This document shows positions 5,346 through 36,960 of a stretch of DNA of 56,667 nucleotides, piece after piece. The stretch is taken from contig CAZZGQ010000002.1 of NCBI GenBank assembly GCA_964653765.1, positions 1 through 56,667 on the forward strand. Reading direction: 5' to 3'. The stretch comes from an uncultured Elusimicrobia bacterium (GTDB taxonomy: Bacteria; Elusimicrobiota; Elusimicrobia; UBA1565; UBA9628). The stretch's first letter is position 1. Each line of letters begins with the position of its first letter. A model generated the notes under the pieces. It was not told the DNA's origin, ran no database searches, and saw nothing but the letters and a program-made list of their open reading frames with translations. A program made the translations under genes and the position numbers.

Positions 5346-6599
5346 TTAGCGGGCTTCCGCGGGCAGGTCGGCGGTCCGTATGCCGAAGAGCGGCCAGCAG
5401 AGCAGGGCCAGGACGCCTTGCGCTCCAGCCATGGCCAACGCCGCGCCGGCGGCGCCCAGCCGGGGGATGAGGAGAAGGTCGAGGATCAAGTTGAAAGCGA
5501 TCGCGCCTACCGCCGCGGCCGCCGCCGCAGCGGAGCGCTTCGCGCCGATCAGGGCGTTGAGGGAAAAGTGGTTGATGAACATGAAAGGAAGCGCCAGCGA
5601 GAGCCAGATCAGGTATTTAGCCGTGCTGGCGTAGGCCGGGCCGTAGATCAAGCGCGTCCCCAGGCGCGCTCCTAAGGCGCAGGCCGTGGCCGCGAGACAG
5701 CCGCCGAGGAAAAGCTCCAGGCGCAGCCGGCTGGCGGTCTGGCGCACGGTGCCCTTCTGCAGGCCGGAAAAGACCGGCAGCGACGCGATCGCGAAGAGGC
5801 CGGGCAGCATCCCGATGCCGGCGATGACGCGCTCGGCGGCGAAGTAACGGCCCGTCTCGTCCGCCCCGACGCCAAACCACTTGAGGCAGGCGATGTCGAC
5901 GCGCGAGAAGCCGGCCAGCGCCAAGTTGATCAAGGCGAGGGCGGCCACCTCGCCCATCTCGGCGGACGGCCAGCGAGGCAGGGGCCACGATGCCGGGCGA
6001 GGCAGCGCGGTCACTTGGCGCGCGATCAATATCAGGCCGATAAGCGCGGCGAGCGCGTGCGCGAGCAAAAGCGCTAAGACCGCGGCGCCAACGGTCGGGC
6101 GAAGAGACAGCGCGGCCAAGCCGAGCCCCAACGTGAAGCAGCCGAGGACGAGCTTCATCCAGGACTCGACCTTCAGCTTTTCGTAGGCGAGGCAAAAATA
6201 GCTGAGCTGGTCGACGAGGTTGCGGCCCGCCGCTAACGCCAGGAAGAGAAGAACGATGCCCCGCTCGCTGGCAAAGGCCGGCCAGAGCGAGACTCCGGCC
6301 AGGAACAACGCGAACAGGACGACCTTGGCGTAGGTGATCTGGAGGAAGAGTGGCGCGCCCTTCGATTTGTCGCCGGCGACGTCTCGGGTCAGGAGGACGT
6401 TGAGGCCGCAGTCGCCGAGCGAAGCCAGGAACATCGCCGCGGCGTATCCGACGGAGAACCGCCCGAAGCTCGCCGCGCCCAGCCGGCGAGCGAGGAGGAT
6501 GAAGTAGACGATCTGGAATCCGCGGGAGGCCTCGGCGGCCGCCTTCCAGAGAAAATTGAGCCCGATGCGCCGTCGCGTCCCGCTCGCGGAGAGGGTCAT
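5346..6599 (-). CDS. wzx: Wzx/MOP-family polysaccharide flippase
   Basis: About 12 hydrophobic segments; LARRLG...FG, D.GL...L.RDVA, RVDI..L, G.Y.AA.R, L.P.LG..GAA.A; ATG at 6599 coupled to the upstream GT2 stop. Confidence 0.85.
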   Translation of the reverse strand: MTLSASGTRRRIGLNFLWKAAAEASRGFQIVYFILLARRLGAASFGRFSVGYAAAMFLASLGDCGLNVLLTRDVAGDKSKGAPLFLQITYAKVVLFALFLAGVSLWPAFASERGIVLLFLALAAGRNLVDQLSYFCLAYEKLKVESWMKLVLGCFTLGLGLAALSLRPTVGAAVLALLLAHALAALIGLILIARQVTALPRPASWPLPRWPSAEMGEVAALALINLALAGFSRVDIACLKWFGVGADETGRYFAAERVIAGIGMLPGLFAIASLPVFSGLQKGTVRQTASRLRLELFLGGCLAATACALGARLGTRLIYGPAYASTAKYLIWLSLALPFMFINHFSLNALIGAKRSAAAAAAAVGAIAFNLILDLLLIPRLGAAGAALAMAGAQGVLALLCWPLFGIRTADLPAEAR

Positions 6600-7447
6600 G
6601 AGCGGGCGGTCTCTGGGGCGTTCCAATCCCAGCCGTGCGCGGCGAAGTAAGCGCGGTTGAGCGCCTTGATCGCCGCGCTCTCCCAGGGAGGACGGTGCTT
6701 GTCGAAGTAGCGCGTCTGGGACCGCCGCACTTCGCGCCGCAGCCAGTCTGGCGCCGCCCCCCGCTCGGCGTAAGGCGCGGCGTGGACGGCTTGAGCGGCC
6801 GGGAGGTAATAGGTGGGGAAACCCGCCTGGCGCGCCCGGAAGCAAAAATCCACGTCCTCATAATACATGAAATAGCCGGTGTCGAACCCGCCGACGGCGT
6901 CAAAGACCTTGCGCGTGCAGGCCAGAAAGGCGCCGGTGACCCAGTTGACCCGCGCCGCGCCGGAGGGGGCCGGCGTGGGGGGGCGCAGATAGTATTTGCG
7001 GCGCGTCCTCGGCAGCGCCAGCCGAGCGAGCGTTCCTGCCAACGTCGGGAACGGGCCGCAGGACGGCTGCTCGGAGCCGTTCTCGGAGGACAGCCGGCCG
7101 CCGACGACTGCGTCTCGATCTGAGAGGAATCCTGCGATAGCGCGCAAGGAGCCTGGCGCGAGGTAGAGGTCTTGATTGACGACGACGAGGGCCCGGCCTT
7201 TGGCCTCAGAAGCCGCGCGGTTGACCGCTTGCGAAAAGCCGAGATTGGCCGCGTTCTTCAGTAGGCGGATGCCGGGTAGGTCCGCGACGAGGGAAGGCGT
7301 CTCGTCCAGGGAGGCGTTGTCGACGACCAGCGTCTCGACAGGCAGGTCCTGGGCCGCCGCTGTCGTTGCGTCGACGGCTCGACGGATCCACGGCGAGCCG
7401 TTGTGAGCCGGAATAAGGACGGACAGGGCGGGCTCGGCGGCGGCCAT
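6596..7447 (-). CDS. GT2 glycosyltransferase (WbbL/rhamnosyltransferase-like)
   Basis: SVLIPAHN, VVDNAS.D, N.GFSQAVN, VNQD, WVTGAFL, GGFD..YFMYYEDVDFCFR. Confidence 0.9.
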   Translation of the reverse strand: MAAAEPALSVLIPAHNGSPWIRRAVDATTAAAQDLPVETLVVDNASLDETPSLVADLPGIRLLKNAANLGFSQAVNRAASEAKGRALVVVNQDLYLAPGSLRAIAGFLSDRDAVVGGRLSSENGSEQPSCGPFPTLAGTLARLALPRTRRKYYLRPPTPAPSGAARVNWVTGAFLACTRKVFDAVGGFDTGYFMYYEDVDFCFRARQAGFPTYYLPAAQAVHAAPYAERGAAPDWLRREVRRSQTRYFDKHRPPWESAAIKALNRAYFAAHGWDWNAPETARS

Positions 7448-7493: not shown

Positions 7494-7553
7494 TGTTAGA
7501 ATTGTCATTGCTACTTGACTATTAAATAAGCATCGAGATAATAACTCGAGGAG
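7494..7553 (+). promoter_or_regulatory. Sigma70-type promoter(s) and RBS for the main + strand cluster
   Basis: TTGACT (7515-7520)-N16-GATAAT (7537-7542); upstream extended -10 TGTTAGAAT (7494-7502); GAGGAG at 7548-7553, 6 nt before ATG 7560; AT-rich divergent gap. Confidence 0.7.
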
Positions 7554-7559
7554 AATCCA

Positions 7560-8435
7560 ATGACGCGTAAAATCGTCCGTTTCGGCAACCGCATCATCGC
7601 GCAGGGTAACGAGCCTTATATCATCGCTGAGATCGGGATTAATCACAACGGGTCGTTGGATACGGCCAAGAAGCTCATCGACGCGGCCAAGTCGGCGGGC
7701 TGCGACGCGGTCAAGTTCCAAAAACGCACGGTCGACATCGTGTACACGAAGGAAGAGCTGGCCAAGCCGCGGGAAAACCCTTTCGGGCCCACCAACGGCG
7801 ACCTCAAGCGCGGACTCGAGTTCGGCAAGAAGGAGTATGGAGAGATCGATCGTTACTGCAAGGAGCTGAAGATCGACTGGTTCGCTTCCTGTTGGGATGA
7901 GGGCTCCGTCGATTTCATGGAGGAGTTCGACCCCGTCTGCTACAAGATCGCCTCGGCCAGCCTGACCGACGACAACCTGCTGCGCCATCACCGAAAGACC
8001 GGCAGGCCCATCATTCTTTCGACGGGCATGAGCACCGATGCGCAGATCAAGCATGCAGTGGAGGTCTTGGGCCTCGATGATTTGGTGCTCATGCACGCGA
8101 CCAGCACCTATCCCTCCAAGCCGGAGGAATTGAATCTGGCCTGCATCGCGAAGTATATGGAGCGTTATCCTGTTCCGATCGGATACTCGGGGCATGAGGT
8201 CGGCCTGGCCACGACCTTCGCTGCCGCGGTGCTCGGCGCCTGCGTCATCGAGCGTCACATCACCCTGGACCGTTCCATGTGGGGCAGCGATCAGTCCGCC
8301 TCGGTGGAGCCCCAAGGGTTCGCTCGCCTAGTCCGCGATATTCGCGAGCACCGCGTGGCCTTGGGCGACGGCGTCAAGACGGTCTACCCAAGCGAGAAGC
8401 CCATCATCGAGAAGCTGCGCCGCGTGGGGAAGTGA
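7560..8435 (+). CDS. neuB: N-acetylneuraminate synthase family (NeuB/SpsE), short form without C-terminal AFP/SAF domain
   Basis: IIAEIGINHNG, DAVKFQ, YKIASASL, ILSTGM, HATSTYP, GYSGHE, IERHITLDR.MWGSDQ.AS; 291 aa. Confidence 0.93.
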   Translation: MTRKIVRFGNRIIAQGNEPYIIAEIGINHNGSLDTAKKLIDAAKSAGCDAVKFQKRTVDIVYTKEELAKPRENPFGPTNGDLKRGLEFGKKEYGEIDRYCKELKIDWFASCWDEGSVDFMEEFDPVCYKIASASLTDDNLLRHHRKTGRPIILSTGMSTDAQIKHAVEVLGLDDLVLMHATSTYPSKPEELNLACIAKYMERYPVPIGYSGHEVGLATTFAAAVLGACVIERHITLDRSMWGSDQSASVEPQGFARLVRDIREHRVALGDGVKTVYPSEKPIIEKLRRVGK

Positions 8436-8737
8436 CCTACTGCTTCGACATCGACGGCACTCTGTGCACCAATACGGAAGGTGCTTACGAGGATGCGGCC
8501 GGTTTCCCGGACGTCATAGAGCGCGTTAACGCGCTCTATGACGCCGGGCACCGCATCATTCTCTGCACGGCCCGGGGCTCCAAGACCGGCATCGATTGGC
8601 GCAAGGTGACGGAGCAGCAGATGCAGCGCTGGGGCGTTAGGTATCATGAACTGTGGTTCGGCAAGCCGACGGCCGACGTCTACGTCGACGACAAGGCCGT
8701 CAATATCAAGGATTGGATGATCAAGGAGCCGCGATGA
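8432..8737 (+). CDS. Minimal capless HAD-family phosphatase
   Basis: GTGA overlap; FDIDGT (motif I), CTARG (II), GKP (III), VYVDD (IV); 101 aa. Confidence 0.82.
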   Translation: MTYCFDIDGTLCTNTEGAYEDAAGFPDVIERVNALYDAGHRIILCTARGSKTGIDWRKVTEQQMQRWGVRYHELWFGKPTADVYVDDKAVNIKDWMIKEPR

Positions 8738-9720
8738 CACCGCATAGAGGACGCGTCGTCTATCTCAACGGTGAGTATGTGCCCGAGGCCTCGGCGCGCA
8801 TCTCGATCTACGACTCGGCGTTGATGTTCGGCGACATGGTCTTCGAGATGACCCGTTCCTTCAGCAAGAAGCAGTTCAAGCTGCGCGAGCACTTGGAGCG
8901 CCTCTACGCCTCCGTCCGCTTCGTGAACATCCCGCTCAAGATGCCGATCGAGAAGATGGAGAAGCTCTGCCAAGAGGTCATCGAGCGCAACGACCCTCTC
9001 TTCGAGAGCACCGACGAGCATCGCTTGATGATCAACGTCAGCCGCGGGCCCTTGTCCATCTACGCTCCCATCTTCGGCGGCAAGATGGAGCCGACGGTCG
9101 TCATCGCCGACTTTCCGCTCAAGTGGACGGTGGCTTCGATGGGGCCGCTCTTCGACACCGGCATCAACGCTGTCATCCCTTCCCAGCGCGCCATCCCGGC
9201 GACGCTGCTCGATCCCAAGGTCAAGAGCCGCAGTCGCCTCCATTACATGATGGCCAACATCGAGGTCTCGCAGGTCAAGGGCGACAACAACTGGGCGCTG
9301 CTCCTCGATCCTGAGGGTTTCATCGCCGAGGGCACCGGCGACAACATCTTCATCGTCAAGGATGGCGTCGTCATCACGCCCGAGCCGCGCAATATCCTGC
9401 GCGGCATCAGCCGGGCGTACATCTTCGAGCTCTGCGAGCAGCTCAAGCTCAAGTGTGTCGAGCGCAACATCGAGCCGTACGACATGCTCATGGCCGACGA
9501 GTCGTTCATGACCGGCACTCCGTTCTGTCTGCTGCCCGTCACGGCCCTTAACGGCACGGCGTTGGGTGACGGCAAAATGGGACCGATCACGCGCCGGCTG
9601 CTCGAGCGCTGGAGCAAGAACGTCGGGGTCGACGTCGAAAAGCAGATCAAGGATTGGGGCCGGGAGATCAGCTCGGCGGCCGCCGGGGCGCCCAGCCCTT
9701 ATCAATTCCGGCGCGGGTGA
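8734..9720 (+). CDS. PLP fold-type IV aminotransferase (BCAT/D-amino acid aminotransferase/PabC family)
   Basis: VYLNGEYV, FGD.VFE, HLERL..S, DPKVKS (Schiff-base Lys), EGTGDNIF, LRGISR, ESFMTGT. Confidence 0.9.
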   Translation: MTPHRGRVVYLNGEYVPEASARISIYDSALMFGDMVFEMTRSFSKKQFKLREHLERLYASVRFVNIPLKMPIEKMEKLCQEVIERNDPLFESTDEHRLMINVSRGPLSIYAPIFGGKMEPTVVIADFPLKWTVASMGPLFDTGINAVIPSQRAIPATLLDPKVKSRSRLHYMMANIEVSQVKGDNNWALLLDPEGFIAEGTGDNIFIVKDGVVITPEPRNILRGISRAYIFELCEQLKLKCVERNIEPYDMLMADESFMTGTPFCLLPVTALNGTALGDGKMGPITRRLLERWSKNVGVDVEKQIKDWGREISSAAAGAPSPYQFRRG

Positions 9721-10544
9721 CGACGAACCCGATCGGCATCATGCAGGGGCGTCTTTCGCCTCCTGCGCATGGACGGATACAGGCCTTCCCCGCGGATTCT
9801 TGGAAGCGCGAGCTCGAGTTGGCCGGCGACCTCGGACTGGCCCATATCGAGTGGGTCTATGACGTCGAGAGCGCCGACTCGTCGCCGCTGCTGACCGATC
9901 CGGGCGCGGTTCGCGAGGTCGTCCGCCGCACCGGCGTCAAGATCGCTGCCGTCTGCGGCGATTATTTCCGCGACTGTCCCGTGATTCGCGTCGATGCGCG
10001 GGGCTTGCGTGAGCGGGTTGAGCGCGTGGCGCGCCTATGCGCCGCCTGTCGTGAACTCGAAATCCCGGCTGTCATGATTCCCTTCGTCGATTTCTCGGCG
10101 ATCCAGGGCGAGGCCGAGCTTCCCGCTGTCGCCGCCGCTCTCAGGGAATGCCTGCGCCCGGCGCGTGAAGCGGGGATCAAAATCCTGCTGGAGACGAACC
10201 TCCAGCCCGCCCTTTACCGCAGACTTCTCGAGGACGTCGGCGATCCCGGGCTCGGCGTCAACTATGACATGGGCGACTGCGCTTCGCTAGGGCATGAGCC
10301 TGCCGCCGAACTCGGGCTTCTGGGTCCTTGGCTTCGCGGTGTCCATGTAAAGGACAGGCCGCTCGGCGGCTCGACGGTCCCGCTCGGTAGCGGCGCTGTC
10401 GACTTCCCAACGGTCTTTCGGGCATTGGACAAAGCGGGCTTCGCCGGGCCGATCACCCTTCAGACAGCACGCGCTGGCGACGAGCTCGAGCTGGCGCGCC
10501 GCAACCGCAGCTTCGTGCGGTCTCTTCTATGCCCAAGCGCGTGA
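9717..10544 (+). CDS. Xylose-isomerase-like TIM barrel (sugar phosphate isomerase/epimerase, AP-endonuclease-2 family)
   Basis: GTGA overlap; IGIMQGRLSP, LLET, NYD.GD, HVKD, G.G.VDF. Confidence 0.82.
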   Translation: MTTNPIGIMQGRLSPPAHGRIQAFPADSWKRELELAGDLGLAHIEWVYDVESADSSPLLTDPGAVREVVRRTGVKIAAVCGDYFRDCPVIRVDARGLRERVERVARLCAACRELEIPAVMIPFVDFSAIQGEAELPAVAAALRECLRPAREAGIKILLETNLQPALYRRLLEDVGDPGLGVNYDMGDCASLGHEPAAELGLLGPWLRGVHVKDRPLGGSTVPLGSGAVDFPTVFRALDKAGFAGPITLQTARAGDELELARRNRSFVRSLLCPSA

Positions 10545-11356
10545 CGCCGGCGGCTTTTTCGCTCAAGGGCCGGGTGGCTGTTGTGACGGGCGGCGCGGGC
10601 TTTTTGGGGCAACAGCATGCCCGGGCTCTGCATGCTCATGGCGCGGAGGTGGCGCTCGTCGACATCGATGAGGCCGCCGCCAAGAAGGCGGCGCGCCGCG
10701 TTGGTCGTCGCGCGGCGGGCTTCGCAGTCGACGTGACCTCGCCCGATTCGGTGCGTGCTCTGGAGCGGCGCGTGCGCGCCGCTCTCGGCGAGGTTGATAT
10801 CCTCCTCAATAACGCGGCGATTGACCCGAAGATCAAGGCGGGAGGCGAGGGTGTCGAGTTCTCCCGACTCGAGAACTTTCCGCTGGAGCAGTGGAACCGC
10901 GAGATTGCTGTCGGCTTGACGGGAGCTCTTCTGTGCAGCCAGGTCTTCGGCACGCGCATGGCGCAGCGAGGACGCGGAGTCATCCTCAACATCGCCTCGG
11001 ACCTGTCCGTGATCGCGCCTGATCAGCGTCTCTATCGCAAGTCCGGTTTGCCGAAGCACCGCCAGCCCGTCAAGCCCGTCACGTATTCTGCGATCAAGGC
11101 GGGGTTGGTCGGCCTCACTCGATACTTGGCGACTTATTGGGCCGAGGACGGAGTTCGAGTCAATGCGCTGTCACCTGGAGGGATGCGCAAGGATCAGCCC
11201 GAGGAGTTCGTGGCGAGGCTGTCATCGCTCATCCCAGCCGGCCGCATGGCCGAGCTCGACGAATACGGAGGAGCGGTCGTCTTTCTCGTCAGCGACGCTT
11301 CGTCTTACATGACCGGCCAAAACGTCGTGATTGACGGCGGCCGAAGCATCTGGTAG
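10529..11356 (+). CDS. SDR family oxidoreductase
   Basis: TGGAGFLG, NNAA, YSAIK, VRVNALSPGG, TGQNVVIDGG. Confidence 0.93.
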   Translation: MPKRVTPAAFSLKGRVAVVTGGAGFLGQQHARALHAHGAEVALVDIDEAAAKKAARRVGRRAAGFAVDVTSPDSVRALERRVRAALGEVDILLNNAAIDPKIKAGGEGVEFSRLENFPLEQWNREIAVGLTGALLCSQVFGTRMAQRGRGVILNIASDLSVIAPDQRLYRKSGLPKHRQPVKPVTYSAIKAGLVGLTRYLATYWAEDGVRVNALSPGGMRKDQPEEFVARLSSLIPAGRMAELDEYGGAVVFLVSDASSYMTGQNVVIDGGRSIW

Positions 11357-11364
11357 GGGGTACT

Positions 11365-12096
11365 ATGGCTAAACGGGTCGTCGGTATCATTCAGGCGCGC
11401 ATGGGATCGTCGCGGCTCCCGGGGAAATCGATGGAGCTGCTGGCCGGCAAGCCGTTGGTTTGGCAATTCCTCGAGCGAGTGAAGCGATCCAAGCGGCTCG
11501 ACGAGATCGTGCTGGCCACGACCACCAAGGCGCAGGACGACGTTCTAGAGCAGTTGGCGCGCGGCTGCGAGGTCAGCGTCTTCCGAGGTAGCGAGAACGA
11601 TCTAGTCGACCGCTATTTCCAGGCGGCGAAACGGTTCAAAGCCGACACGGTGGTGCGCTTGTGCGCCGACAATCCGGTCGTCGAGTCCGAAGAAGTCGAC
11701 CGGATCATCGAGTACTTCCCTATCTCCGGCGTGGATTTCGCGGCTAATACTCATAACATCCTCGACAACCAGTATCCCGACGGCCTGGGCGCCGAGATCT
11801 TCAGCTTCGAGAGCTTGGAGGAAATCTGGCGGGAGTCCACCGACCCTCGGCGCAGGGAGCACCCGCACACGAACTTCTACGAGCAGCCCGAGAAGTACAC
11901 GATCGGCACCGTGCCTTGCCCCGCCGGCTTCCGCAGGCCCGAGCTCAAGCTCGACGTCAATCTGCCCGAGGAGCTGGCTTTCCTGCAGACGATCTACGAT
12001 TACTGCTATCCGCGCAACGAGCGCTTCCATATCACGGATATTATTCGGTGGCACGATACAGTCTATAAGAAGGAGCCGCTAAGAGCGTCGAAATAG
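11365..12096 (+). CDS. Acylneuraminate-type cytidylyltransferase, SpsF/PseF-like
   Basis: IIQARMGSSRLPGKS, FRGSENDLVDRY, VRLCADNP, REH, LDV..PE.L. Confidence 0.9.
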   Translation: MAKRVVGIIQARMGSSRLPGKSMELLAGKPLVWQFLERVKRSKRLDEIVLATTTKAQDDVLEQLARGCEVSVFRGSENDLVDRYFQAAKRFKADTVVRLCADNPVVESEEVDRIIEYFPISGVDFAANTHNILDNQYPDGLGAEIFSFESLEEIWRESTDPRRREHPHTNFYEQPEKYTIGTVPCPAGFRRPELKLDVNLPEELAFLQTIYDYCYPRNERFHITDIIRWHDTVYKKEPLRASK

Positions 12097-12101
12097 TCGC
12101 C

Positions 12102-12893
12102 ATGAGCTTTACGTTAGAACGAATCAGGGATTTTTGGACGGACCAGGCGAAGACACATGGGCAATCGTATGCCGCTTCGTGGTCAGATCGCTACGCTATT
12201 GAGTTGGAGATCGAGACGCTGCTCAATTACGTAGCGCCAGGCGACCGTATGCTCGATATCGGATGCGCGAACGGTTTTTCAACGCTCCGAATTGTGAGTC
12301 AACGAGCTGTGTCAGTCGACGCGATAGACTATATTCCGGACATGGTTGAACAAGCCACGCGGCGCGCTGCTGATCTCGACGGACAACTTCAAGGATCGGT
12401 TCGATTTTCCGTCGGCGATGCAACTGCCCTTGAGCAAGAATCGGAATCCTACGACAAGGTCATGGCGATTCGAGTCGTCATAAACCTGCGTTCGTGGGAC
12501 AACCAAAAGAAAGCTCTACAAGAAGCGTCGCGAGTCCTAAAACGAGGCGGATTGCTTCTGCTATCAGAGGCGACTCTTCAGGGCTGGACCAAGCTCAACT
12601 CACTGCGGGCTACGTTTGGCCTTGCGCCTATCCCGATGCCTGCCTTCAATGAGTATCTAGATCAAGACCGAGTCGTCGATGCGCTCCGTGGGTCGATGGA
12701 TCTCGTCATGATCCGGAATTTCTCTAGCACTTACTTTCTGGGGACGCGCGTGCTTAAACCACTTGTATTTCCGATTGTCGGGCTTGCTGCTGAGATACCG
12801 AATCCGCAAACAGCATGGAACCGGTGGTTCTCGCGCTTGCCGGCCTTGGGGACATTCGGCACCCAAAAACTATTCGTTTTTCGAAAGAAGTAA
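12102..12893 (+). CDS. Class I SAM-dependent methyltransferase
   Basis: LDIGCANG, GDAT.L, RVLKRGG. Confidence 0.88.
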   Translation: MSFTLERIRDFWTDQAKTHGQSYAASWSDRYAIELEIETLLNYVAPGDRMLDIGCANGFSTLRIVSQRAVSVDAIDYIPDMVEQATRRAADLDGQLQGSVRFSVGDATALEQESESYDKVMAIRVVINLRSWDNQKKALQEASRVLKRGGLLLLSEATLQGWTKLNSLRATFGLAPIPMPAFNEYLDQDRVVDALRGSMDLVMIRNFSSTYFLGTRVLKPLVFPIVGLAAEIPNPQTAWNRWFSRLPALGTFGTQKLFVFRKK

Positions 12894-17873: not shown

Positions 17874-18938
17874 GTGAAGCGGCCATTAAGAGTCGGCATT
17901 GCCGGGTATGGCGTCATTGGCCAGCGCCGAAGGCAAGTCATCGACGCGCATCCCGCCCTTAAGCTAGTCGCCATTGGCGATAAGACTTTTAAACGGCGAG
18001 AGCGGTTGGGAAACGGCCCTCGACAGTATCACGACTGCAGGGATCTTGTTGCTGCCGAACAGCTAGACGTTTTGTTCGTTTGTCTCCCAAATTATCTCGC
18101 AGCGCCGATGACCCTGGCCGGCCTGAAACGTGGTTTTCATGTGTTCTGCGAGAAGCCGCCAGGCCGCACGCTTGCTGAGATAGACGCCGTGTATGAATAC
18201 ACCAAGCGCAGGCCAGACCTGAAATTGAAGTATGGCTTCAATCATCGATATCATGACTCGGTCCGCGACGCGTTAGAGATTCTGGCCAAAGGAGAACTCG
18301 GCCGCGTTATTAGTCTGCGAGGCGTCTATGGCAAAAGCAAGATCATCCCTTTTGCCGATGCGTGGCGGGGAAAGCGGAAATATGCCGGAGGAGGCATCCT
18401 TCTTGACCAGGGCATTCATATGGTCGACCTCATCCGTCTGTTCGCGGGGGAATTCGTCGACGTTCACAGTTTCATTTCAAACGATTTCTGGCGGCATGAC
18501 GTGGAGGATAACGCCTATGCGTTGATGCGCACGAGAACGGGCGTGGTGGCCATGGTTCATTCTTCTGCGACGTCTTGGCGCCATCGTTTCCATCTTGACG
18601 TGACGCTGGAGCGCGGCGCCTTGATCCTTTCTGGCATTCTTTCGGGCTCACGTAGTTACGGCGCTGAGACACTTACGGTGGTCTATGCCGGTCAGGATGA
18701 TTCCGGCGACCCTAAAGAGCAAACGACTCGCTACAATCAGGATCATTCTTGGCGCGATGAGATCGATGAATTCGTCGAGGCCATTCTTCAGAATAAACCC
18801 GTTTCAAACGGCTCTTGCGAGGATGCCGTCAAGACGATGGAGCTCATTTACCGTATTTACTGCGCGGATTCCGTTTGGCGGAGCGCCTACAAGTTGCGGG
18901 GCCGGTTGTCGGGCGATCTTGCCGGAGCCGCGCGGTGA
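17874..18938 (+). CDS. Gfo/Idh/MocA family oxidoreductase
   Basis: GIAGYGVIG, HVFCEKP, GFNHRY, GGGILLDQGIH.VD. Confidence 0.92.
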   Translation: MKRPLRVGIAGYGVIGQRRRQVIDAHPALKLVAIGDKTFKRRERLGNGPRQYHDCRDLVAAEQLDVLFVCLPNYLAAPMTLAGLKRGFHVFCEKPPGRTLAEIDAVYEYTKRRPDLKLKYGFNHRYHDSVRDALEILAKGELGRVISLRGVYGKSKIIPFADAWRGKRKYAGGGILLDQGIHMVDLIRLFAGEFVDVHSFISNDFWRHDVEDNAYALMRTRTGVVAMVHSSATSWRHRFHLDVTLERGALILSGILSGSRSYGAETLTVVYAGQDDSGDPKEQTTRYNQDHSWRDEIDEFVEAILQNKPVSNGSCEDAVKTMELIYRIYCADSVWRSAYKLRGRLSGDLAGAAR

Positions 18939-19654
18939 AACGACCGCTCTCCGGTAAACGTGCGCTTGTCACCGGTGGCACTCGTGGCATTGGCGCGGCG
19001 ATCGTGCGGCGGCTGTGTCAAGATGGCGCGAGCGTCACGGTGACTGGCACCCGATTGAACGGCGAAAAACCGAAGGGCTGTGCCTATTTTGCCGTCGATT
19101 TCGCCGATCGCCCGGCGACGGAGGATTTCGCGCGACAAATGGCGCGGCGAGGTTTCGACATATTGATCAACAATGCCGGCATAAACAAGATTTCCCGATT
19201 TCAAGATATCGATCCTAGAGATTATGATCGGATCCAAGAAGTCAACGCGCGCGCTCCCTTTTTGCTTTGCACGGCTCTAGTTCCTGGAATGACGGCCCGT
19301 CGGTGGGGGCGCATCGTCAACCTGACCTCTATTTTTGGCGTCGTGAGCAAGGAATGTCGCGGAGCGTATTCCGCCAGCAAATTCGCTCTCGATGGGATGA
19401 CGGCAAGCCTCGCTGCGGAAGTGGTCCCTTACGGCGTTCTGGCAAACTGCGTCGCTCCTGGGTTTATCGATACCGAACTGACACGCTCAGTCCTTGGGAA
19501 AGCAGGCATGAAGGAAATGGCTCGGGCCATACCCGCCAAGCGCTTGGGCCGCCCGGAGGAGATCGCGGCGCTCGTGGCCTGGCTCTGCGGACCAGAGAAT
19601 ACTTACATTAGCGGCCAGAATCTCGTCATCGACGGTGGTTTTAGTCGTGTCTGA
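18935..19654 (+). CDS. SDR family oxidoreductase (FabG-like)
   Basis: GTGA overlap; TGGTRGIG, NNAG, YSASK, NCVAPGFIDT, SGQNLVIDGG. Confidence 0.92.
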   Translation: MKRPLSGKRALVTGGTRGIGAAIVRRLCQDGASVTVTGTRLNGEKPKGCAYFAVDFADRPATEDFARQMARRGFDILINNAGINKISRFQDIDPRDYDRIQEVNARAPFLLCTALVPGMTARRWGRIVNLTSIFGVVSKECRGAYSASKFALDGMTASLAAEVVPYGVLANCVAPGFIDTELTRSVLGKAGMKEMARAIPAKRLGRPEEIAALVAWLCGPENTYISGQNLVIDGGFSRV

Positions 19655-20735
19655 TCTCATCGTCCAGTCGCATCGGGGTCCGTATGCGGCGCATTTCAGC
19701 GGCGAGTCGCTTGACGATTTGTTCCGCGCGCCGCGGCCTAACGCCCATTATATCGTCGATCAAAATGTGGCGAAGCTCTATGCGAAGGCTCTTCGTCCAG
19801 TTCTTGAAACACGCTCAGTCCTTCGCCTGGAGGCCACGGAAAGAGCCAAGACGCTTGAGTGTTTCACCGGGTATGTTGAGCATCTTGTCGCATCGGGAAT
19901 ACGCCGCGGCGATACTTTGGTCGCTATAGGTGGCGGCGTTATTCAGGACATCGTTTGCTTTCTTGGAGCCACGTTGTTGCGCGGGATCGATTGGGAATTT
20001 TATCCAACCACCTTACTGGCTCAGGCCGACTCTTGCATCGGGTCGAAGAGCTCAATTAACGTCGGTTCTGCGAAGAATGTCCTTGGCACATACACGCCGC
20101 CAAAACGCATCGTCATTAACGTCGGTTTTCTTGACACTCTCTCCGAGTGGGATAGGCGGTCTGGAGTGGGCGAGATGCTCAAGGTCCATGCGATTGAGGG
20201 GCCGGCGGCTTTTAACCGTATCGCAAGCGAATACTCGAGGCTTTTTTTAGATAAGGGTGCCCTGATTCAATACTTGCGTGATTCCCTCGAAATAAAGCGC
20301 CGGATCGTTGAAGTTGATGAATTCGATCGTGGGCCTCGCAACGTCATGAATTACGGCCACACTTTTGGGCATGCCATCGAATCGGCGACTGATTACGCCA
20401 TTCCCCATGGAATTGCCGTGACGATCGGCATGGACATGGCGAATTTCGTCGCTTGGAAGCTTGGGTTGAGCACCGGAGAAATCTATTTCCGTATGCGACC
20501 GACGCTTGCGGCCAACTACAAAGGCTATGAATCAACGAAGGTGCCGTTTGATTCTTTCCTCGCGGCGATCGGGAAAGACAAAAAAAATACGAAAGATCAG
20601 CTCGGGCTGATTCTGCCAGATGGCGAGGGCCGTGTGGCGAAGCGTTTTTGTTCAAACAACGAGGAGTTCCGCGCCAGTTGCGAAGAATACCTCGCTCACC
20701 AGCGTGAGCCCTTGCCGCTGGCAAAGGGTCAATAG
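19647..20735 (+). CDS. AroB-related (3-dehydroquinate synthase-like) sugar-phosphate cyclase (alternative start 19635)
   Basis: E..KT, GGGVIQD, RG....PTTLLAQ.DS.IG.K...N, KN..G, GEMLK, RN.MNYGHTFGHAIE, HG.AV..GM, DKK. Confidence 0.88.
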   Translation: MSDLIVQSHRGPYAAHFSGESLDDLFRAPRPNAHYIVDQNVAKLYAKALRPVLETRSVLRLEATERAKTLECFTGYVEHLVASGIRRGDTLVAIGGGVIQDIVCFLGATLLRGIDWEFYPTTLLAQADSCIGSKSSINVGSAKNVLGTYTPPKRIVINVGFLDTLSEWDRRSGVGEMLKVHAIEGPAAFNRIASEYSRLFLDKGALIQYLRDSLEIKRRIVEVDEFDRGPRNVMNYGHTFGHAIESATDYAIPHGIAVTIGMDMANFVAWKLGLSTGEIYFRMRPTLAANYKGYESTKVPFDSFLAAIGKDKKNTKDQLGLILPDGEGRVAKRFCSNNEEFRASCEEYLAHQREPLPLAKGQ

Positions 20736-20800: not shown

Positions 20801-22615
20801 ATGTTCCTTGCGACCACCGCATTGAGCGAGTTCTGGGATACGCGCTCCAGTATTCTGTTCCTTGGATCCTGGTGCTGCCTGCACAGCCGGATCCGGCAGC
20901 TCAAGACGATAGAGCACGCCGTCTTGCCTTATCCGTTAGACGATAAAGCCGTCTTCGATGAGGCTGTCGAGTTCTGCGACGTCTTTTATGACAGGTCCTT
21001 ATCCATTCTAGCGAGGACGCTGAACGGCCTGCACGGGACCTCTCTCAGCGAACAGTATTGGCGCATCCTTCTTGGCCCGTGGCTTACCCATTACATCCAC
21101 GCTCTCTATGACCGCTACCTTTGCGTCCAGGCCGCGCGAGAGAGCTATGGCGTCCTCGAAACCATCGGGCTGGACGAGTCGTCGTATTTCGTGCCTCGAG
21201 ATGCCGACGATCTGCTCAGGTCCATCCATACGGACTCCTATAACCTGCAGCTTCTCACCGCGACGTGCGAGTTTATGGGTGTCCGAATCAACTCGAGAAA
21301 AGCCCTAGATGTGCGGTCCGAAACCATCGTGCTTTCTCATTGGCGCGCGCGGCTCAAGCTTCGAGCGAGAAGAGTGTTTGCGGGATGCCTCGCGCGCCTG
21401 CTTCCTCAGTCCGTTTTCCTTCGTGACGGCCAAATCTGGTATTTTTCCTCTTACCTTCCGCTTAGCGCTCGGTTCCGCCTCCTGCTGCAGACTCGCGGTA
21501 GGGCGGTGTTCGTTCCGTATCACCGTAATGGCCCGAAGTTCGGCGCGCCGAAGATGGACCGCGATCTGCGCGCAGGGCTGGCTCGCGCATTCGGCGAAGG
21601 CGAATTCGAGCGCCTCTTCGCCTCAACGCTCGCCGCGAATTTCCCATGGCTGTACCTCGAGGGCTATGCTCGTTATCTGGCGCAGTTGAAGCCGATGTTG
21701 AGCCTCTCGCCGCGGGCGCTCGTTGCCTCCACCAATACCGTGCCCTTCCAATTCATCGCGGCTCAGCTCAAAGAGAAGGCCGGGTCCAAGCTCATCAGCG
21801 TCCAACATGGCGGCTCCTTCGGAACGGTCAAGCATAGTCCGACGGAGAAGCACGATCAGATAGTCGCGGATGAATATTGGAGCTGGGGCTGGTCAGACGG
21901 TTTGGGCGGACGCGCCAGACCGGTTCCCGGCTTCTTGCTCGGTTCTAGTCGACGACGGGGTGCCAGACGCCGCATGACGGGTCCTATTCTCTATAGTGGC
22001 AATGATATGCCGCGATACGCCTATCGTCTCTGGAGTAATCCGATCGGACCGCAATGGGAAGAGTTCATCCAATGGCAGCACCGCTGGCTCAGGGCGCTTG
22101 GAGCCGAGGCGCGTTCGGAGCTCTTTATTAGACTCTATCCCCACGACCATTACCTTTGGGAGCAAAAGCAACGGCTGCTAGAGTCATTCCCTGATTTGAG
22201 GCATGATGACGGTATAGTGCCATTCGAAGAAGCACTTGACCGCTGCAAGCTGTTCGTAGCTGACAACAACCACACCACGTTATTGCAGGCTCTGTCGGCG
22301 GACAAGCCGACGGTTTTGTTTTGGGAGCCGCGCTTCAATGGGCTTCGCCCGTCTGCCGAGCCCTACTTCGCCCGATTGCGAGAAACAGGCGTATTGCACT
22401 ATTCTCCCGAAGATGCCGCACGCAAGGTCAATGAGGTCCGCTCTCAACCGATGGACTGGTGGCGGCAGCCCGATGTGAGGCGAGCTGTAGCTTCGTTCAG
22501 GAGGCAGTTTGCCCATACCGAAGCCGATACCACAGCGGCCTGGGGCGACTCCTTTCTTCGGCTGCTCCGCAACTCTGTAAACCCAGCCGATCCGTCCTTG
22601 CTTTCTCGTCGATAG
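20801..22615 (+). CDS. Putative glycan transferase, resembles LIC12162 family (GT-B-like C-terminus)
   Basis: MFLATTAL.E.W...ILFLG.WC N-terminus, W.ILLGPWL, QHGG, WGW, RLYP, N.TT.LQAL....PT. Confidence 0.72.
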   Translation: MFLATTALSEFWDTRSSILFLGSWCCLHSRIRQLKTIEHAVLPYPLDDKAVFDEAVEFCDVFYDRSLSILARTLNGLHGTSLSEQYWRILLGPWLTHYIHALYDRYLCVQAARESYGVLETIGLDESSYFVPRDADDLLRSIHTDSYNLQLLTATCEFMGVRINSRKALDVRSETIVLSHWRARLKLRARRVFAGCLARLLPQSVFLRDGQIWYFSSYLPLSARFRLLLQTRGRAVFVPYHRNGPKFGAPKMDRDLRAGLARAFGEGEFERLFASTLAANFPWLYLEGYARYLAQLKPMLSLSPRALVASTNTVPFQFIAAQLKEKAGSKLISVQHGGSFGTVKHSPTEKHDQIVADEYWSWGWSDGLGGRARPVPGFLLGSSRRRGARRRMTGPILYSGNDMPRYAYRLWSNPIGPQWEEFIQWQHRWLRALGAEARSELFIRLYPHDHYLWEQKQRLLESFPDLRHDDGIVPFEEALDRCKLFVADNNHTTLLQALSADKPTVLFWEPRFNGLRPSAEPYFARLRETGVLHYSPEDAARKVNEVRSQPMDWWRQPDVRRAVASFRRQFAHTEADTTAAWGDSFLRLLRNSVNPADPSLLSRR

Positions 22616-33286: not shown

Positions 33287-34301
33287 AGCCTTAGGCTCGA
33301 GTCTTGGGAGCGTCGTTTCTCCATTCGCCAACCCCACGGCGCGGCGAGTAGCCGCGCGCTACCTGGATTCTCGCGAGGCGGTTGACGCCTCTGGGACATG
33401 GAGGTCGACGCGGCGTTTTGGCGTTGGACTTCTCGAGCTGGTTGGGGCTTCCTACGCTGACTATCAGTCCCTGGCCAAAGGCCAGGCGGATCTCGAGGAT
33501 GTTGGGTTTGAGAAGAGCTTGAGCTTGCTTGGCCCCTTCGCGGAGGGAGACCCGTCTATCGTATTGATGGAGAGATGGGTGAAGGAGCGTGGTTTGCTTT
33601 GCCGGGCCGTGGCGCTCTCAAGCGCTCCGGTTCTTCGGATCACGGGATCATGGCAGGAGTATTGCGATTCCAAGCGGGGAAAATTTTGGCACAACCTCAA
33701 TCGCTCCCAACGTCAGATCGAATCGCAATTCGGTCCGCTCGAATTCAAGGTTCTCGAAAGGCCCGAAGACGTAGAGAAGGCTTTTCCGTCTTGTCTCGAG
33801 CTCTATCGCGCGAACTGGACGCGACTGACGTCGCGATCCTTCTTCTTGAGCGATTCGGGCGGCCGATTCCTTCATGATTTAATGGTTGAGTTGTCGCGCG
33901 AGGGTAAGGCCGAGATCTCGCGGCTTGAGCAAAGGGGCGAGCTCCTGGCGTTTTCCTGCGCGCTGAAGATGGATTCAATCTATTATTTTTACGTCTTCGC
34001 CACGAGTAAGCGTCCGGAATTCGAGCGCTTCTCCATTGGGAAGCTTTTCCTGAGACGGCTGCTGGAATCCGTCTTTTCGCGGGGAATGTGCGCGTTTGAC
34101 TTCATGGCTGGCGAGGAGCCGTATAAGTTCGAATGGACCCGCGCAAGCCGCAGCCGAGCGCTCTATTTGGTCGCCCCCGACACGCTGGCCGGTCGAGCGC
34201 GTCTTGAATATTTCCTGGCAGCGCGCGGCTTGGAAGCCAGGCTTAAGAACAACCAGATGTTGCGAGGCCTGTTGCAGCGCCTGTCTCTTTTGTTGCGATG
34301 A
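33255..34301 (+). CDS. GNAT family acyltransferase (CelD/BcsL-like)
   Basis: DY..L, W.EY...K....NL.R..R, SIG.L.L..L.E, FDFMAGEEPYK.EW. Confidence 0.8.
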   Translation: MSLSFGVTTDKALGSSLGSVVSPFANPTARRVAARYLDSREAVDASGTWRSTRRFGVGLLELVGASYADYQSLAKGQADLEDVGFEKSLSLLGPFAEGDPSIVLMERWVKERGLLCRAVALSSAPVLRITGSWQEYCDSKRGKFWHNLNRSQRQIESQFGPLEFKVLERPEDVEKAFPSCLELYRANWTRLTSRSFFLSDSGGRFLHDLMVELSREGKAEISRLEQRGELLAFSCALKMDSIYYFYVFATSKRPEFERFSIGKLFLRRLLESVFSRGMCAFDFMAGEEPYKFEWTRASRSRALYLVAPDTLAGRARLEYFLAARGLEARLKNNQMLRGLLQRLSLLLR

Positions 34302-35395
34302 GAATTACGGCCTCGCCAAGTCTAAGTTTTTCCGACATCCTGAAATTGTGGCGGCTTAAGCCTGCGTCTGATTCGAGGGCGGGCATGGCTTGGGTGGCCG
34401 ACGGCCGGACCGCTCTTGAGGCCGCCTTGCGTCATTGCGCAGGCGGCGGCCCGTGGCTCGTACCGGCCTATTGTTGCCCAGCCGTTCGGCAAACCTTCCT
34501 CGCCGCAGGCATACAAACCGAATACTATCCCGTGGACGAGTCCCTGGTTCCTGTTTGGGACTGCCTGAAAGCTAGGCTCGAACAGGGCGCGGCTGCGGGG
34601 ATCGTCATCATTCACTATTTCGGATTTCGAACGGACTGGACTCCGCTCAAGTCCCTCTTAGTATCGAGGAAAATTCCGCTCATCGAGGATTGCGCCCATC
34701 TTCCGATGCCTGATCCCGGCTGCGAGAATTTAGAGAGCGAGGCGCGGATCTATAGCCCGCGGAAATGGCTGCCGATTCCGCACGGCGGCATGCTAATGTT
34801 GAAGCACTTTGACGGCTCGCCGCAATCCCTATTTCAAAAAAGCACGCCCGATCTTGTTCCTCAGCTAGCACGCAGCGCCGCGTTCGCGCTTGAACGCGGT
34901 TTGCGTCTTAACCTGCGGGGGTGGCTGCTTTCTCTGCCGGCATTTGAGCGCCGCGTTGAAAGTCAAGACGCCGTTGGGCACGCCTATGGCCTGGCCATGG
35001 ATCCGCGCCTTGTCGCCTTCATCAAAAACGGCGCCCCGGCGGCGGCTGAGATCGCCCAGAAACAAAGAAACAATTACGAAGCCTTGGCGCACCACCTCAT
35101 CAGTCTGCCGTCACTTCGGTTGTGGCGGCGACCAATGCCAGAGGATTGTCCCTATACGTTGCCAGTCTTGCTTGATCCCGCGCGCCGAGATGGCCTTCTC
35201 CGGTATTGCCTTCGCAGGGGAGTGATGGCGAGAGCTTATTGGAGATCGCTTCCGCCCGAGGTCATGGCCAGCGCCGACTTCGAGACATCAAGACGGCTTT
35301 CGGAAAGCCTCCTTTGCCTTCCGATCCACTACCGGCTGAGCTCCTCCGATTTAGACCGGGTTCGCGCTGTTGTCGCGGCATTCTTTAACGAATAG
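34298..35395 (+). CDS. Divergent DegT/DnrJ/EryC1/StrS-like PLP-dependent enzyme
   Basis: GR.AL, VPAYCCP.V, IHYFG, LIEDCAH, YSPRKWLP...GG, S..LLCLPIH. Confidence 0.72.
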   Translation: MRITASPSLSFSDILKLWRLKPASDSRAGMAWVADGRTALEAALRHCAGGGPWLVPAYCCPAVRQTFLAAGIQTEYYPVDESLVPVWDCLKARLEQGAAAGIVIIHYFGFRTDWTPLKSLLVSRKIPLIEDCAHLPMPDPGCENLESEARIYSPRKWLPIPHGGMLMLKHFDGSPQSLFQKSTPDLVPQLARSAAFALERGLRLNLRGWLLSLPAFERRVESQDAVGHAYGLAMDPRLVAFIKNGAPAAAEIAQKQRNNYEALAHHLISLPSLRLWRRPMPEDCPYTLPVLLDPARRDGLLRYCLRRGVMARAYWRSLPPEVMASADFETSRRLSESLLCLPIHYRLSSSDLDRVRAVVAAFFNE

Positions 35396-36328: not shown

Positions 36329-36919
36329 TTAAGGACGTTTTGCGATCTCCTTTGCTGGTATGCCAGCTACAATTGTCCAAGGAGCAATGCTTCTTGTAAC
36401 TACGGCCCCTGCACCGACTATGGCATGCGCGCCAATTGTAACGTTGGGTAGTACTACGACATGAGCGCCTATCCAAACATCATCTTCGATCTTAATCGTT
36501 CCCGATTCGTGACCTTGTCGGTTGATCGGCAAATCTCTGGAGGAAAATCGATGATTGCTTGTTCTTAAAATTGTATTGGGGCCAATCAGGACATCGTTGC
36601 CTATTAAAATTCGACCTCCATCAGCTGCTGATAAACTTACGTTGAAATTGAGGGACACAGAATTTCCTATCTGGATAAGACCATTGGCATTCGCATAGAT
36701 GCTCCCATTCCGCAACATGCCAAAGTTGTCCCCAATAGAAACATTTTTGCCTTCAACAACGAGAATCTGTTCGTCAAAGCAAGCATTTCGCCCGAGGCTG
36801 CTCAGTGTCATTTTTAGCCACATTCTTCTTGCTAGTCGTCCGATGCGACCAGGAAGACTGCGAACCAACGCATCCACCCAAGTAGTTAATTCTTCCGATA
36901 TTTTCTGCCAGAGCGCCAT
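36329..36919 (-). CDS. Hexapeptide-repeat (left-handed beta-helix) O-acyltransferase
   Basis: IGNDVLIGPN, NH.F, IEDDVWIGA.V.VLP.VTIG..AIVGAGAVVT, VAGIPAK; ATG 36919 preferred because the longer start overlaps the promoter. Confidence 0.9.
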   Translation of the reverse strand: MALWQKISEELTTWVDALVRSLPGRIGRLARRMWLKMTLSSLGRNACFDEQILVVEGKNVSIGDNFGMLRNGSIYANANGLIQIGNSVSLNFNVSLSAADGGRILIGNDVLIGPNTILRTSNHRFSSRDLPINRQGHESGTIKIEDDVWIGAHVVVLPNVTIGAHAIVGAGAVVTRSIAPWTIVAGIPAKEIAKRP

Positions 36920-36931
36920 GGAGTGATTTGA

Positions 36932-36960
36932 ATTATAGACGTACACAGTCGTTTCAGCAA
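36932..36960 (-). promoter_or_regulatory. Sigma70-type promoter for the inverted cassette
   Basis: Minus strand TTGCTG (36960-36955)-N17-TATAAT (36937-36932), 12 nt upstream of ATG 36919. Confidence 0.6.

Follow-up and report, generated by a model that had tools for sequence, protein, structure and literature searches.

A candidate phosphate-route pathway to a CMP-activated amino-ulosonic acid in a surface-glycan island of an uncultured Elusimicrobia bacterium

We analyzed a 56,667-nt stretch of DNA from an uncultured Elusimicrobia bacterium (contig CAZZGQ010000002.1 of assembly GCA_964653765.1; hereafter, the window), which corresponds to contig C2 of a draft genome (4.04 Mb; 626 contigs; completeness of about 88%). 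The genes at positions 7560–12893 of the window may encode a pathway that starts from a sugar phosphate and leads to an amino-ulosonic acid activated with cytidine monophosphate (CMP) for the surrounding surface-glycan locus; we assign this reading a probability of about 55%. Its core is a cassette of six genes at 7560–12096, all on the forward strand: a NeuB-family synthase lacking the SAF domain (NeuB'), a minimal HAD phosphatase (mini-HAD), a class IV pyridoxal phosphate (PLP)-dependent aminotransferase (AT4), a xylose-isomerase-like TIM barrel, a short-chain dehydrogenase/reductase (SDR) and an SpsF-type cytidylyltransferase. Searches with Pfam and NCBIfam profiles, together with the motifs and the fold of mini-HAD, assigned these genes to the families named in the first-pass annotation, and the junctions read from the sequence confirm its claim that the six genes are coupled.

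In the proposed pathway, NeuB' would condense phosphoenolpyruvate (PEP) with an aldose phosphate that housekeeping enzymes provide, yielding an ulosonate with a terminal phosphate. Mannose-6-phosphate (Man-6-P) would lead to a C9 acid of the Kdn (deaminoneuraminic acid) type and D-glycero-D-manno-heptose-7-phosphate would lead to a C10 acid. Mini-HAD would then take off the terminal phosphate. The SDR would oxidize one secondary hydroxyl to a ketone, the UlaE/YcjR-like TIM barrel would abstract a proton beside this ketone, with epimerization or isomerization of the neighboring carbon, and AT4, a fold-type IV enzyme, would convert the ketone into an amine. Finally, the cytidylyltransferase would form the CMP-sugar. 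The adjacent methyltransferase and a LIC12162-type transferase may serve to methylate and to attach this sugar, respectively.

The cassette and its recurrence across phyla

The synthase gene (7560–8435; 291 aa; PF03102, 256 bits) is the sole PF03102 gene of the window. Its stop codon overlaps the GTG start of mini-HAD (8432–8737; 101 aa) in the sequence GTGA, and mini-HAD in turn overlaps AT4 (8734–9720; 328 aa; PF01063, 166.2 bits for a cut-off of 28.5) in the sequence ATGA, the start of AT4 having been corrected from 8731 to the ATG at 8734. Another GTGA overlap joins AT4 to the TIM barrel (9717–10544; 275 aa), which presents the AP_endonuc_2 fold (PF01261, 94.3 bits for a cut-off of 31.1). 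The TIM barrel and the SDR (10529–11356; 275 aa; a classical, PtmA/PRK09186-like member matching PF13561 and PF00106) share 16 nt, and a gap of 8 nt precedes the cytidylyltransferase (11365–12096; 243 aa; CTP_transf_3, PF02348, 103.7 bits for a cut-off of 22.6). A methyltransferase dependent on S-adenosylmethionine (SAM) follows on the same strand after 5 nt (12102–12893; 263 aa; Methyltransf_25/31/11), and the operon probably extends beyond 12096 to the end of this gene.

We read the genomic context of AT4 in 12 loci (the window, L004, L024, L043, L044, L045, L046, L054, L055, the P0200 locus, L057 and L058), whose hosts belong to Bacteroidota, Coxiellaceae, Peptococcaceae, Rhodospirillaceae and Elusimicrobiota and include a Nitrosotalea archaeon. 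In each of the 12, the AT4 ortholog (65–78% identity) is strung together with genes for a NeuB-family synthase and a CTP_transf_3 protein. Ten of them additionally contain the TIM barrel and an SDR resembling PtmA, and nine of these ten also possess a second, FabG-like SDR, which is missing from the window cassette. Another SDR of the window (18815–19654) was considered for this missing gene and rejected, as it is merely 27% identical and not an ortholog. That these genes recur together in distant phyla shows that the cassette is more than a chance cluster.

A further comparison comes from a genome of the same family (G003), whose locus (L045/L056; G003:C5:5144-10557; L045 and the G003 contig are the same locus, identical over 16 kb) presents the same cassette order with the addition of the FabG-like SDR. 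Its mini-HAD, AT4 and cytidylyltransferase are 72–74% identical to those of the window, and its synthase is 56% identical and belongs to another clade. It seems that the synthase was swapped inside a cassette that is otherwise conserved.

It could be argued that the short NeuB, as a redundant or degenerate enzyme, serves a legionaminic acid (Leg) pathway encoded on contig C6, or that it simply makes Kdn, and that AT4, the TIM barrel and the SDR are unrelated neighbors. The window is indeed a mosaic glycan island of 50 kb with many unrelated modules, and the genome does contain a complete-looking Leg-type locus on C6 (at about 6.7–16 kb; L003:3710-12960). It comprises genes for a LIC12162 transferase, an aminotransferase of the LegC family, a PtmE-like protein combining CBS and nucleotidyltransferase domains, a formyltransferase, NeuC, a NeuB of full length and a 706-aa fusion whose C-terminus resembles PseC; an N-formylated Leg derivative is the product to which the formyltransferase points. 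The first-pass annotation had stated that its proposal would fall if NeuB preferred unphosphorylated substrates and a complete Leg or pseudaminic acid (Pse) pathway existed elsewhere in the genome, and the C6 locus bears on the second half of that statement only. However, the NeuB of C6 passes the equivalog cut-off (464.5 bits): this locus is equipped with a synthase of its own and therefore does not account for the cassette. The start-to-stop overlaps among the six genes, as well as the presence of the same gene set in distant phyla and an archaeon, also argue against mere proximity, and we regard this explanation as highly improbable, the least probable of those weighed here.

Synthase, phosphatase and the sugar-phosphate route

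NeuB' scored below the equivalog cut-offs of both NeuB (TIGR03569; 248.5 for a cut-off of 399.65) and PseI (TIGR03586; 208.7 for a cut-off of 340.25). No match to the SAF domain (PF08666) was found in NeuB', and its alignment stops at model position 276 of 329; both histidine motifs are kept (GYSGHE and IERHITLD). Relatives with 72–77% identity were found in Nitrospirota, Acidobacteriota, Chloroflexota, Myxococcota, Peregrinibacteria, Peptococcaceae and archaea. More distant relatives (54–60%) are carried, with other partner genes, by plasmids of cultured Methylomagnum, Hymenobacter and Nonomuraea. On one of these, the Methylomagnum ishizawai plasmid pRS11DPr1 (L047; NZ_AP019784.1:164562-172230), a synthase 57% identical to NeuB' is accompanied by an SpsF-like cytidylyltransferase, a split transketolase, a class III aminotransferase, an SDR and a HAD-IIIA protein, which constitutes another tailoring variant in a cultivable host.

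The Kdn-9-phosphate (Kdn-9-P) synthase of Prymnesium parvum has been characterized as specific for Man-6-P (PMC6200933; the sequence was taken from the supplement). This enzyme of about 310 aa also lacks the SAF domain and aligns with NeuB' over its full length at 32% identity (1e-42), with a score of 142 bits against NeuB' and 99 bits against the canonical NeuB of C6. This likeness to a Kdn-9-P-type synthase is suggestive, not decisive. We discarded the placement of the P. parvum synthase in a tree and used the pairwise scores alone, because its branch length of 7.2 carries a risk of long-branch artefact and makes its position unreliable.

The HAD motifs of the phosphatase (D6, D8 and T10 in D6xD8GT10, then T46, K78 and D86-D87) are invariant across 25 mini-HAD homologs, from a family with 714 members in our search. 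A structural model (predicted local distance difference test, pLDDT, of 89.5) was compared with known folds using Foldseek: the nearest was the D-arabinose 1,5-diphosphate phosphatase AfhF of phage HY126 (35% identity; template modeling score, TM, of 0.75), and further matches included the phosphatase of T4 Pnkp and GmhB. Because the HAD motifs are intact and the fold matches, we identify mini-HAD as a HAD phosphatase. All its Pfam and NCBIfam matches are below threshold (TIGR01689, 29.5 bits for a cut-off of 162; PF25109, 26.1 for a cut-off of 27.6), and the models tested for membership of the KdsC/YrbI (Kdn-9-P phosphatase) family, TIGR01670 and NF058599, gave no match. The phosphatase of the window thus lies outside the family used in the known 9-phosphate route, to which it had initially been likened.

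We further surveyed the neighborhoods of 24 synthase loci found with NeuB' as query. The most common neighbors were a HAD of 150–180 aa and a GmhA-like isomerase of the SIS type. This sister-cassette HAD passes the KdsC/YrbI cut-off (TIGR01670; 124.7 for a cut-off of 106.95) and also matches the Kdn-9-P phosphatase model, and the isomerase scores slightly below the GmhA cut-off. L004 encodes a fusion of the HAD with the GmhA-like isomerase, and L006 one of the HAD with the cytidylyltransferase. The resulting set of isomerase, synthase, phosphatase and cytidylyltransferase mirrors KdsD-KdsA-KdsC-KdsB and the Kdn route, and the occurrence of KdsC/Kdn-9-P-type phosphatases in sister cassettes supports a sugar-phosphate route. 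Considered with the SAF-less synthase and the fold of mini-HAD, this makes a phosphorylated, Kdn-like route, as put forward in the first-pass annotation, the best reading of the cassette.

The substrate of NeuB' could be a hexose-6-phosphate or a heptose-7-phosphate. Since many sister cassettes contain a GmhA-like, and thus heptose-type, isomerase, the chain may be C10 instead of C9. One AT4 locus (L055:2861-9692) encodes a 630-aa protein in which NeuB, SAF and an AP_endonuc_2 TIM barrel are fused, beside a GmhA-like isomerase, an HddA-like kinase of the GHMP family and a nucleotidyltransferase, followed by a TIM barrel, a cytidylyltransferase, AT4 and two SDRs. This locus could be a version of the pathway fed by a heptose nucleotide.

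In Bacteroides thetaiotaomicron, the CMP-Kdn route consists of the synthase BT1714, the phosphatase BT1713 and the synthetase BT1715, and P. parvum possesses a CMP-Kdn synthetase in addition to its Kdn-9-P synthase (PMC6200933). The cassette resembles this pathway in its combination of a NeuB-family synthase, a HAD phosphatase and a cytidylyltransferase with no NeuC-type step, and the sister cassettes share with it HADs of the KdsC/Kdn-9-P phosphatase family. In contrast, the synthase identity is only about 32%, the HAD of the window is of another, 100-aa subfamily, and the cassette additionally encodes AT4, the TIM barrel, the SDR and a methyltransferase. This different phosphatase subfamily and these added tailoring enzymes place the cassette outside the CMP-Kdn pathway as defined. 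With the canonical NeuB, LegI and PseI pathways the cassette shares the PF03102 condensation of PEP with an aldose and the subsequent activation with CMP, and LIC12162 genes are found near both loci. It differs from them by a synthase that lacks SAF and scores below the cut-offs, by an operon with neither a NeuC-like hydrolyzing epimerase nor a DegT aminotransferase, and by the presence of a phosphatase. An analogy with PtmA/PtmF was dropped because PtmF is listed in the literature as an oxidoreductase and not as a SIS isomerase.

Aminotransferase, partner enzymes and the order of steps

AT4 is a fold-type IV enzyme that resembles branched-chain aminotransferases (BCATs), with about 40% identity over its full length to archaeal BCATs, and it scores under the ilvE equivalog cut-off (TIGR01122; 184.2 for a cut-off of 245.55). 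No other member of the cassette is as conserved: the ortholog clusters of AT4 at 70–92% identity number at least 120 and include Coxiellaceae, Elusimicrobiota and Nitrosotalea/Nitrosopumilales archaea. On plasmids of cultured, annotated organisms we found no AT4 ortholog, the best match being 36% identical. A second class IV paralog with a stronger family score, likely IlvE, is present on contig C381. The sub-IlvE score of AT4, the stronger paralog and the presence of an AT4 ortholog in only one of 40 related genomes indicate that AT4 is not the housekeeping BCAT.

Residues of AT4 were mapped using an approximate E. coli reference sequence. The catalytic lysine (K162) is kept in 120 of 121 AT4 sequences and the PLP-binding glutamate of the IAEG motif is conserved. 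Across these 121 sequences the pocket shows two changes: FEG is replaced by an invariant FEM, and GTAA by GTPF, which is invariant at its proline and conserved at its threonine. The arginine of the FE(G/M)xR motif is kept. We did not use the BCAT specificity residues Y95/R97 and Y164 as evidence, because HMMER and MAFFT alignments disagree in these segments, and we relied only on the catalytic lysine and the FEM-TR and GTPF motifs. Relative to archaeal and thermophile BCATs (PDB 5CM0/5E25 and 5MQZ), AT4 is thus similar in overall identity, fold type, catalytic lysine and PLP-binding glutamate, but differs by its scores below the IlvE cut-offs, its FEM and GTPF pocket and its context, an ulosonic acid cassette in all 12 cases.

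The genes next to AT4 vary in an informative manner. In two loci (L046:8136-12202 and L054:6139-13325), the TIM barrel and the SDRs are absent, and a conserved 266-aa radical-SAM/SPASM protein (73% identity between the two) follows AT4, with a B12-binding radical-SAM enzyme in each string. Radical-SAM alcohol dehydrogenases, BtrN among them, are proteins of this size. The occurrence of two unrelated kinds of oxidant beside AT4, SDR and radical-SAM, argues for a ketone derived from a secondary alcohol as the substrate of AT4. Cassettes without AT4 contain an SDR-TIM-SDR-SDR string (L006) or an aldo-keto reductase followed by TIM-SDR (L007), and transamination appears to replace the final reduction in the AT4 cassettes. 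These contexts, in which AT4 accompanies either SDRs and a UlaE/YcjR-like TIM barrel or a radical-SAM/SPASM protein, support the suggestion that the ulosonate is oxidized and then aminated or epimerized. Dehydration, which had been suggested as well, found no specific support.

Alternatively, AT4 might aminate the C2 alpha-keto acid of the NeuB' product and generate a polyhydroxylated alpha-amino acid, in which case the cytidylyltransferase would serve another substrate. Alpha-keto acids are the natural substrate class of BCAT-like enzymes, AT4 retains the catalytic lysine and the arginine of FE(G/M)xR, its sole invariant partners are the synthase and the cytidylyltransferase, and two cassettes are devoid of any SDR. 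Yet these two cassettes hold a radical-SAM/SPASM protein beside AT4 that is able to supply a ketone, and the loop that binds the alpha-carboxylate is the one altered from GTAA to GTPF. In addition, the cytidylyltransferase is present in 12 of 12 contexts, whereas amination at C2 would destroy the anomeric center that KdsB/NeuA-type enzymes need. We therefore consider C2 amination very unlikely.

The TIM barrel, modeled from seven orthologs (pLDDT of 92.8), presented UlaE, an L-xylulose-5-phosphate 3-epimerase, as its top Foldseek match (TM of 0.85). The next matches, within the top 25, included ketose 3-epimerases and the 3-keto-glucoside 4-epimerase YcjR (6WN6). Such enzymes abstract a proton beside a sugar carbonyl, and the family is characterized by a Glu-Asp-His-Glu metal site whose two glutamates act as bases on opposite faces. 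Residues E159, D184, H210, K212-D213-R214 and Q249 are invariant in the seven orthologs. We propose that this protein is a keto-sugar epimerase or isomerase that would act beside the new carbonyl. The SDR matched PRK09186 with 153 bits, below the cut-off; its orthologs are 52–65% identical in eight of the nine other TIM-bearing AT4 cassettes with DNA read, and the Nitrosotalea one (L044) is 33% identical.

The N-terminus of the cytidylyltransferase is KdsB-like, and its best solved relative is 6OEW (1e-28), deposited merely as "cytidylyltransferase". Orthologs at 54–74% identity are present in four of the ten other AT4 cassettes with DNA read (L004, L045, L057 and L058). In Bacillus subtilis, spsF is required for the transfer of legionaminic acid (PMC7439481). 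We propose that the window enzyme is a CMP-ulosonate synthetase. The methyltransferase, whose counterparts also flank several sister cassettes, would N- or O-methylate the sugar. For the transfer step, a LIC12162-family gene (20801–22615, forward strand; 604 aa; TIGR04331, 428 bits, above the cut-off) is located 8.7 kb downstream of the cassette. Members of this family (TIGR04331/PF27859) directly follow AT4 cassettes in L045 (10630-12348), L054 (9971-11830) and L057 (10862-12760), the BLAST threshold being met in L045 alone and the Pfam matches being faint in L054 and L057, and another member was found in the Leg locus of C6. LIC12162-family proteins are good candidates for CMP-ulosonate transferases.

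The synthases provide indications on the order of steps. NeuB' is 72–73% identical to two other clade-A synthases of AT4 cassettes, and 72–74% identical to the closest synthases of cassettes without AT4, some of which also lack the TIM barrel. None of 322 alignment columns separates the three synthases of AT4 cassettes from the 16 synthases of AT4-less cassettes. Conversely, AT4 (72–73% conserved) is paired with three synthase types: clade A, clade B and the SAF-bearing fusion of L055. The interchangeability of NeuB' and its lack of AT4-specific residues suggest that tailoring probably follows condensation, and we favor an order in which the SDR, the TIM barrel and AT4 act after this step. This lends indirect support to the claim of the first-pass annotation that oxidation and amination take place after the C–C bond is made.

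The reverse order has a model in the synthesis of kanosamine-6-phosphate by NtdC and NtdA, where the logic of oxidation, transamination and HAD phosphatase is established on sugar phosphates. The SDR, the TIM barrel and AT4 would first act on the sugar phosphate, NeuB' would then condense the amino-sugar phosphate with PEP, and mini-HAD and the cytidylyltransferase would come last. In addition to the kanosamine precedent, this order is favored by the closest fold of the TIM barrel, UlaE being a sugar-phosphate epimerase, by the position of mini-HAD directly before AT4 in all four contexts seen, and by the fusion of cytidylyltransferase and HAD in L006, which fits consecutive phosphatase and activation steps. 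However, a synthase that takes an aminated or epimerized substrate would be expected to differ from its relatives, and the likeness of NeuB' to the synthases of AT4-less and TIM-less cassettes speaks against this order, as does the combination of AT4 with three different synthase types. We consider tailoring before condensation rather unlikely.

Tailoring after condensation also has a precedent. In Shewanella oneidensis, a finished ulosonic acid is oxidized and then transaminated by KdnB and KdnA to form Kdo8N, the 8-amino derivative of 3-deoxy-D-manno-octulosonic acid (Gattis 2013, as cited in PMC5125639). As described there, the system resembles the one proposed here in that a 3-deoxy-ulosonic acid is oxidized and then transaminated for a surface glycan, and differs in that KdnB is an iron-type alcohol dehydrogenase acting on the primary C8 alcohol, whereas the window has an SDR and other cassettes have a radical-SAM protein. 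The window further presents a putative TIM-barrel epimerase, and its acid would come from a NeuB-type and not a KdsA-type synthase. AT4 is of fold-type IV, in contrast to KdnA, a fold-type I aminotransferase.

A second likeness is found in YcjQ/YcjR/YcjS of E. coli, described as a dehydrogenase, a TIM-barrel 3-keto-glucoside 4-epimerase and a dehydrogenase (Mabanglo 2020, as cited in PMC11543891). As summarized there, an AP_endonuc_2 TIM barrel acts on the carbon beside a ketone made by a partner dehydrogenase, as we propose for the window, and the SDR-TIM-SDR make-up of AT4-less sister cassettes is comparable. On the same account, the E. coli system is catabolic, acts on glucosides and uses dehydrogenases that are not SDRs. 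The identity of the TIM barrels is only about 17–18%, and the window has transamination in place of the final reduction.

Several observations weigh against the proposed phosphate-route pathway. Some canonical NeuB proteins match NeuB' as well as the P. parvum enzyme does (125–158 bits and 142 bits, respectively). Three of the 12 AT4 cassettes (L046, L054 and the P0200 locus) have neither a HAD nor any phosphate-route marker nearby, and L055 also lacks a HAD. A SIS/GmhA-type isomerase, which was sought to fix the substrate, was not found in the window; the isomerase genes of the genome lie on other contigs (GmhA-like on C42 and C164, KpsF-like on C120). UlaE works on a sugar phosphate, which fits tailoring before dephosphorylation or condensation. 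In the sequence alignment of the seven orthologs, the position expected to hold the fourth metal-binding, second catalytic glutamate of the TIM barrel appears to be the invariant Gln249. If so, the mechanism may not be that of a two-base epimerase, and isomerase or eliminase chemistry is possible. To our knowledge, all known sugar aminotransferases are of fold-type I, so that the role proposed for AT4 is without precedent. Finally, the assignments of the NeuB' clade, AT4, the TIM barrel and mini-HAD are all drawn from sequence and genomic context.

Genomic setting and significance

The first 6 kb of the window have a GC-content of about 70%, against 62–64% over the cassette and 53–59% over the remaining surface-glycan island of about 50 kb. 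This drop, together with the scarcity of AT4 among the 40 related genomes, fits horizontal acquisition. The synthase gene is divergently oriented relative to a family 2 glycosyltransferase gene on the reverse strand (6596–7447), and the AT-rich gap between them contains a candidate sigma-70-like promoter (TTGACT-16-GATAAT; 7515–7542, forward strand; 10/12 consensus matches), with a GAGGAG ribosome-binding site near 7547 on its 3' side. With three sigma-70-like sites observed in the region against 2.0 expected, this promoter candidate is weak when taken alone.

The first-pass annotation had recognized no NeuC, Pse or Leg set in the window. This stands for a complete set, since NeuC, LegG and PseG are all missing from the window, but isolated pieces were found far from the cassette: a PglF-like membrane 4,6-dehydratase (51709–53613), a weak DegT-like protein (34298–35395) and a hexapeptide acyltransferase (36329–36946, reverse strand). 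Together with a WecA/WbpL-like initiating transferase (50503–51645), these genes have the makings of a first sugar of the diamino-trideoxyhexose (bacillosamine) type. Two more CTP_transf_3 genes, both KdsB-like, are located in the island (40156–40908 and 46738–47514) with no synthase adjoining them. An AroB-like cassette (17874–20735) was considered as a partner of NeuB' and rejected, as no AroB-like gene was found within 9 kb in the NeuB'/AT4 loci searched.

More tentatively than the pathway itself, we propose that mini-HAD, AT4, the TIM barrel and the SDR constitute an undescribed tailoring unit, which would make a new amino-ulosonic acid out of one of the Kdn type or a heptose-derived C10 one, with no precursor of the nucleoside diphosphate-N-acetylhexosamine (HexNAc) kind. 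In that case, sugar biosynthesis would have its first dedicated aminotransferase of fold-type IV in AT4, and the unit would represent a second, independent route to amino sugars of this class, common to many bacterial phyla and to ammonia-oxidizing archaea. All characterized bacterial routes to amino forms that we know of (neuraminic acid, Leg, Pse and their relatives) start from a nucleotide-linked HexNAc and use fold-type I aminotransferases. In our literature searches, nonulosonic acids were not associated with either class IV aminotransferases or xylose-isomerase-like proteins. Because the genes are small, encode soluble-looking proteins and are 65–78% identical between bacteria and archaea, the proposal is directly testable in vitro.

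If it is true, the keto acid would first be assembled from an ordinary sugar phosphate, and an enzyme family known only from amino-acid and amine metabolism would introduce the nitrogen later. A function would follow for hundreds of metagenomic genes annotated as "branched-chain aminotransferase" and "N-acetylneuraminate synthase", and the pathway may help to assign unexplained CMP-linked ulosonic acids detected by mass spectrometry in environmental bacteria (bioRxiv 10.64898/2026.04.20.719630). Sialic acid-like sugars shape the recognition of microbes by phages, hosts and other microbes.

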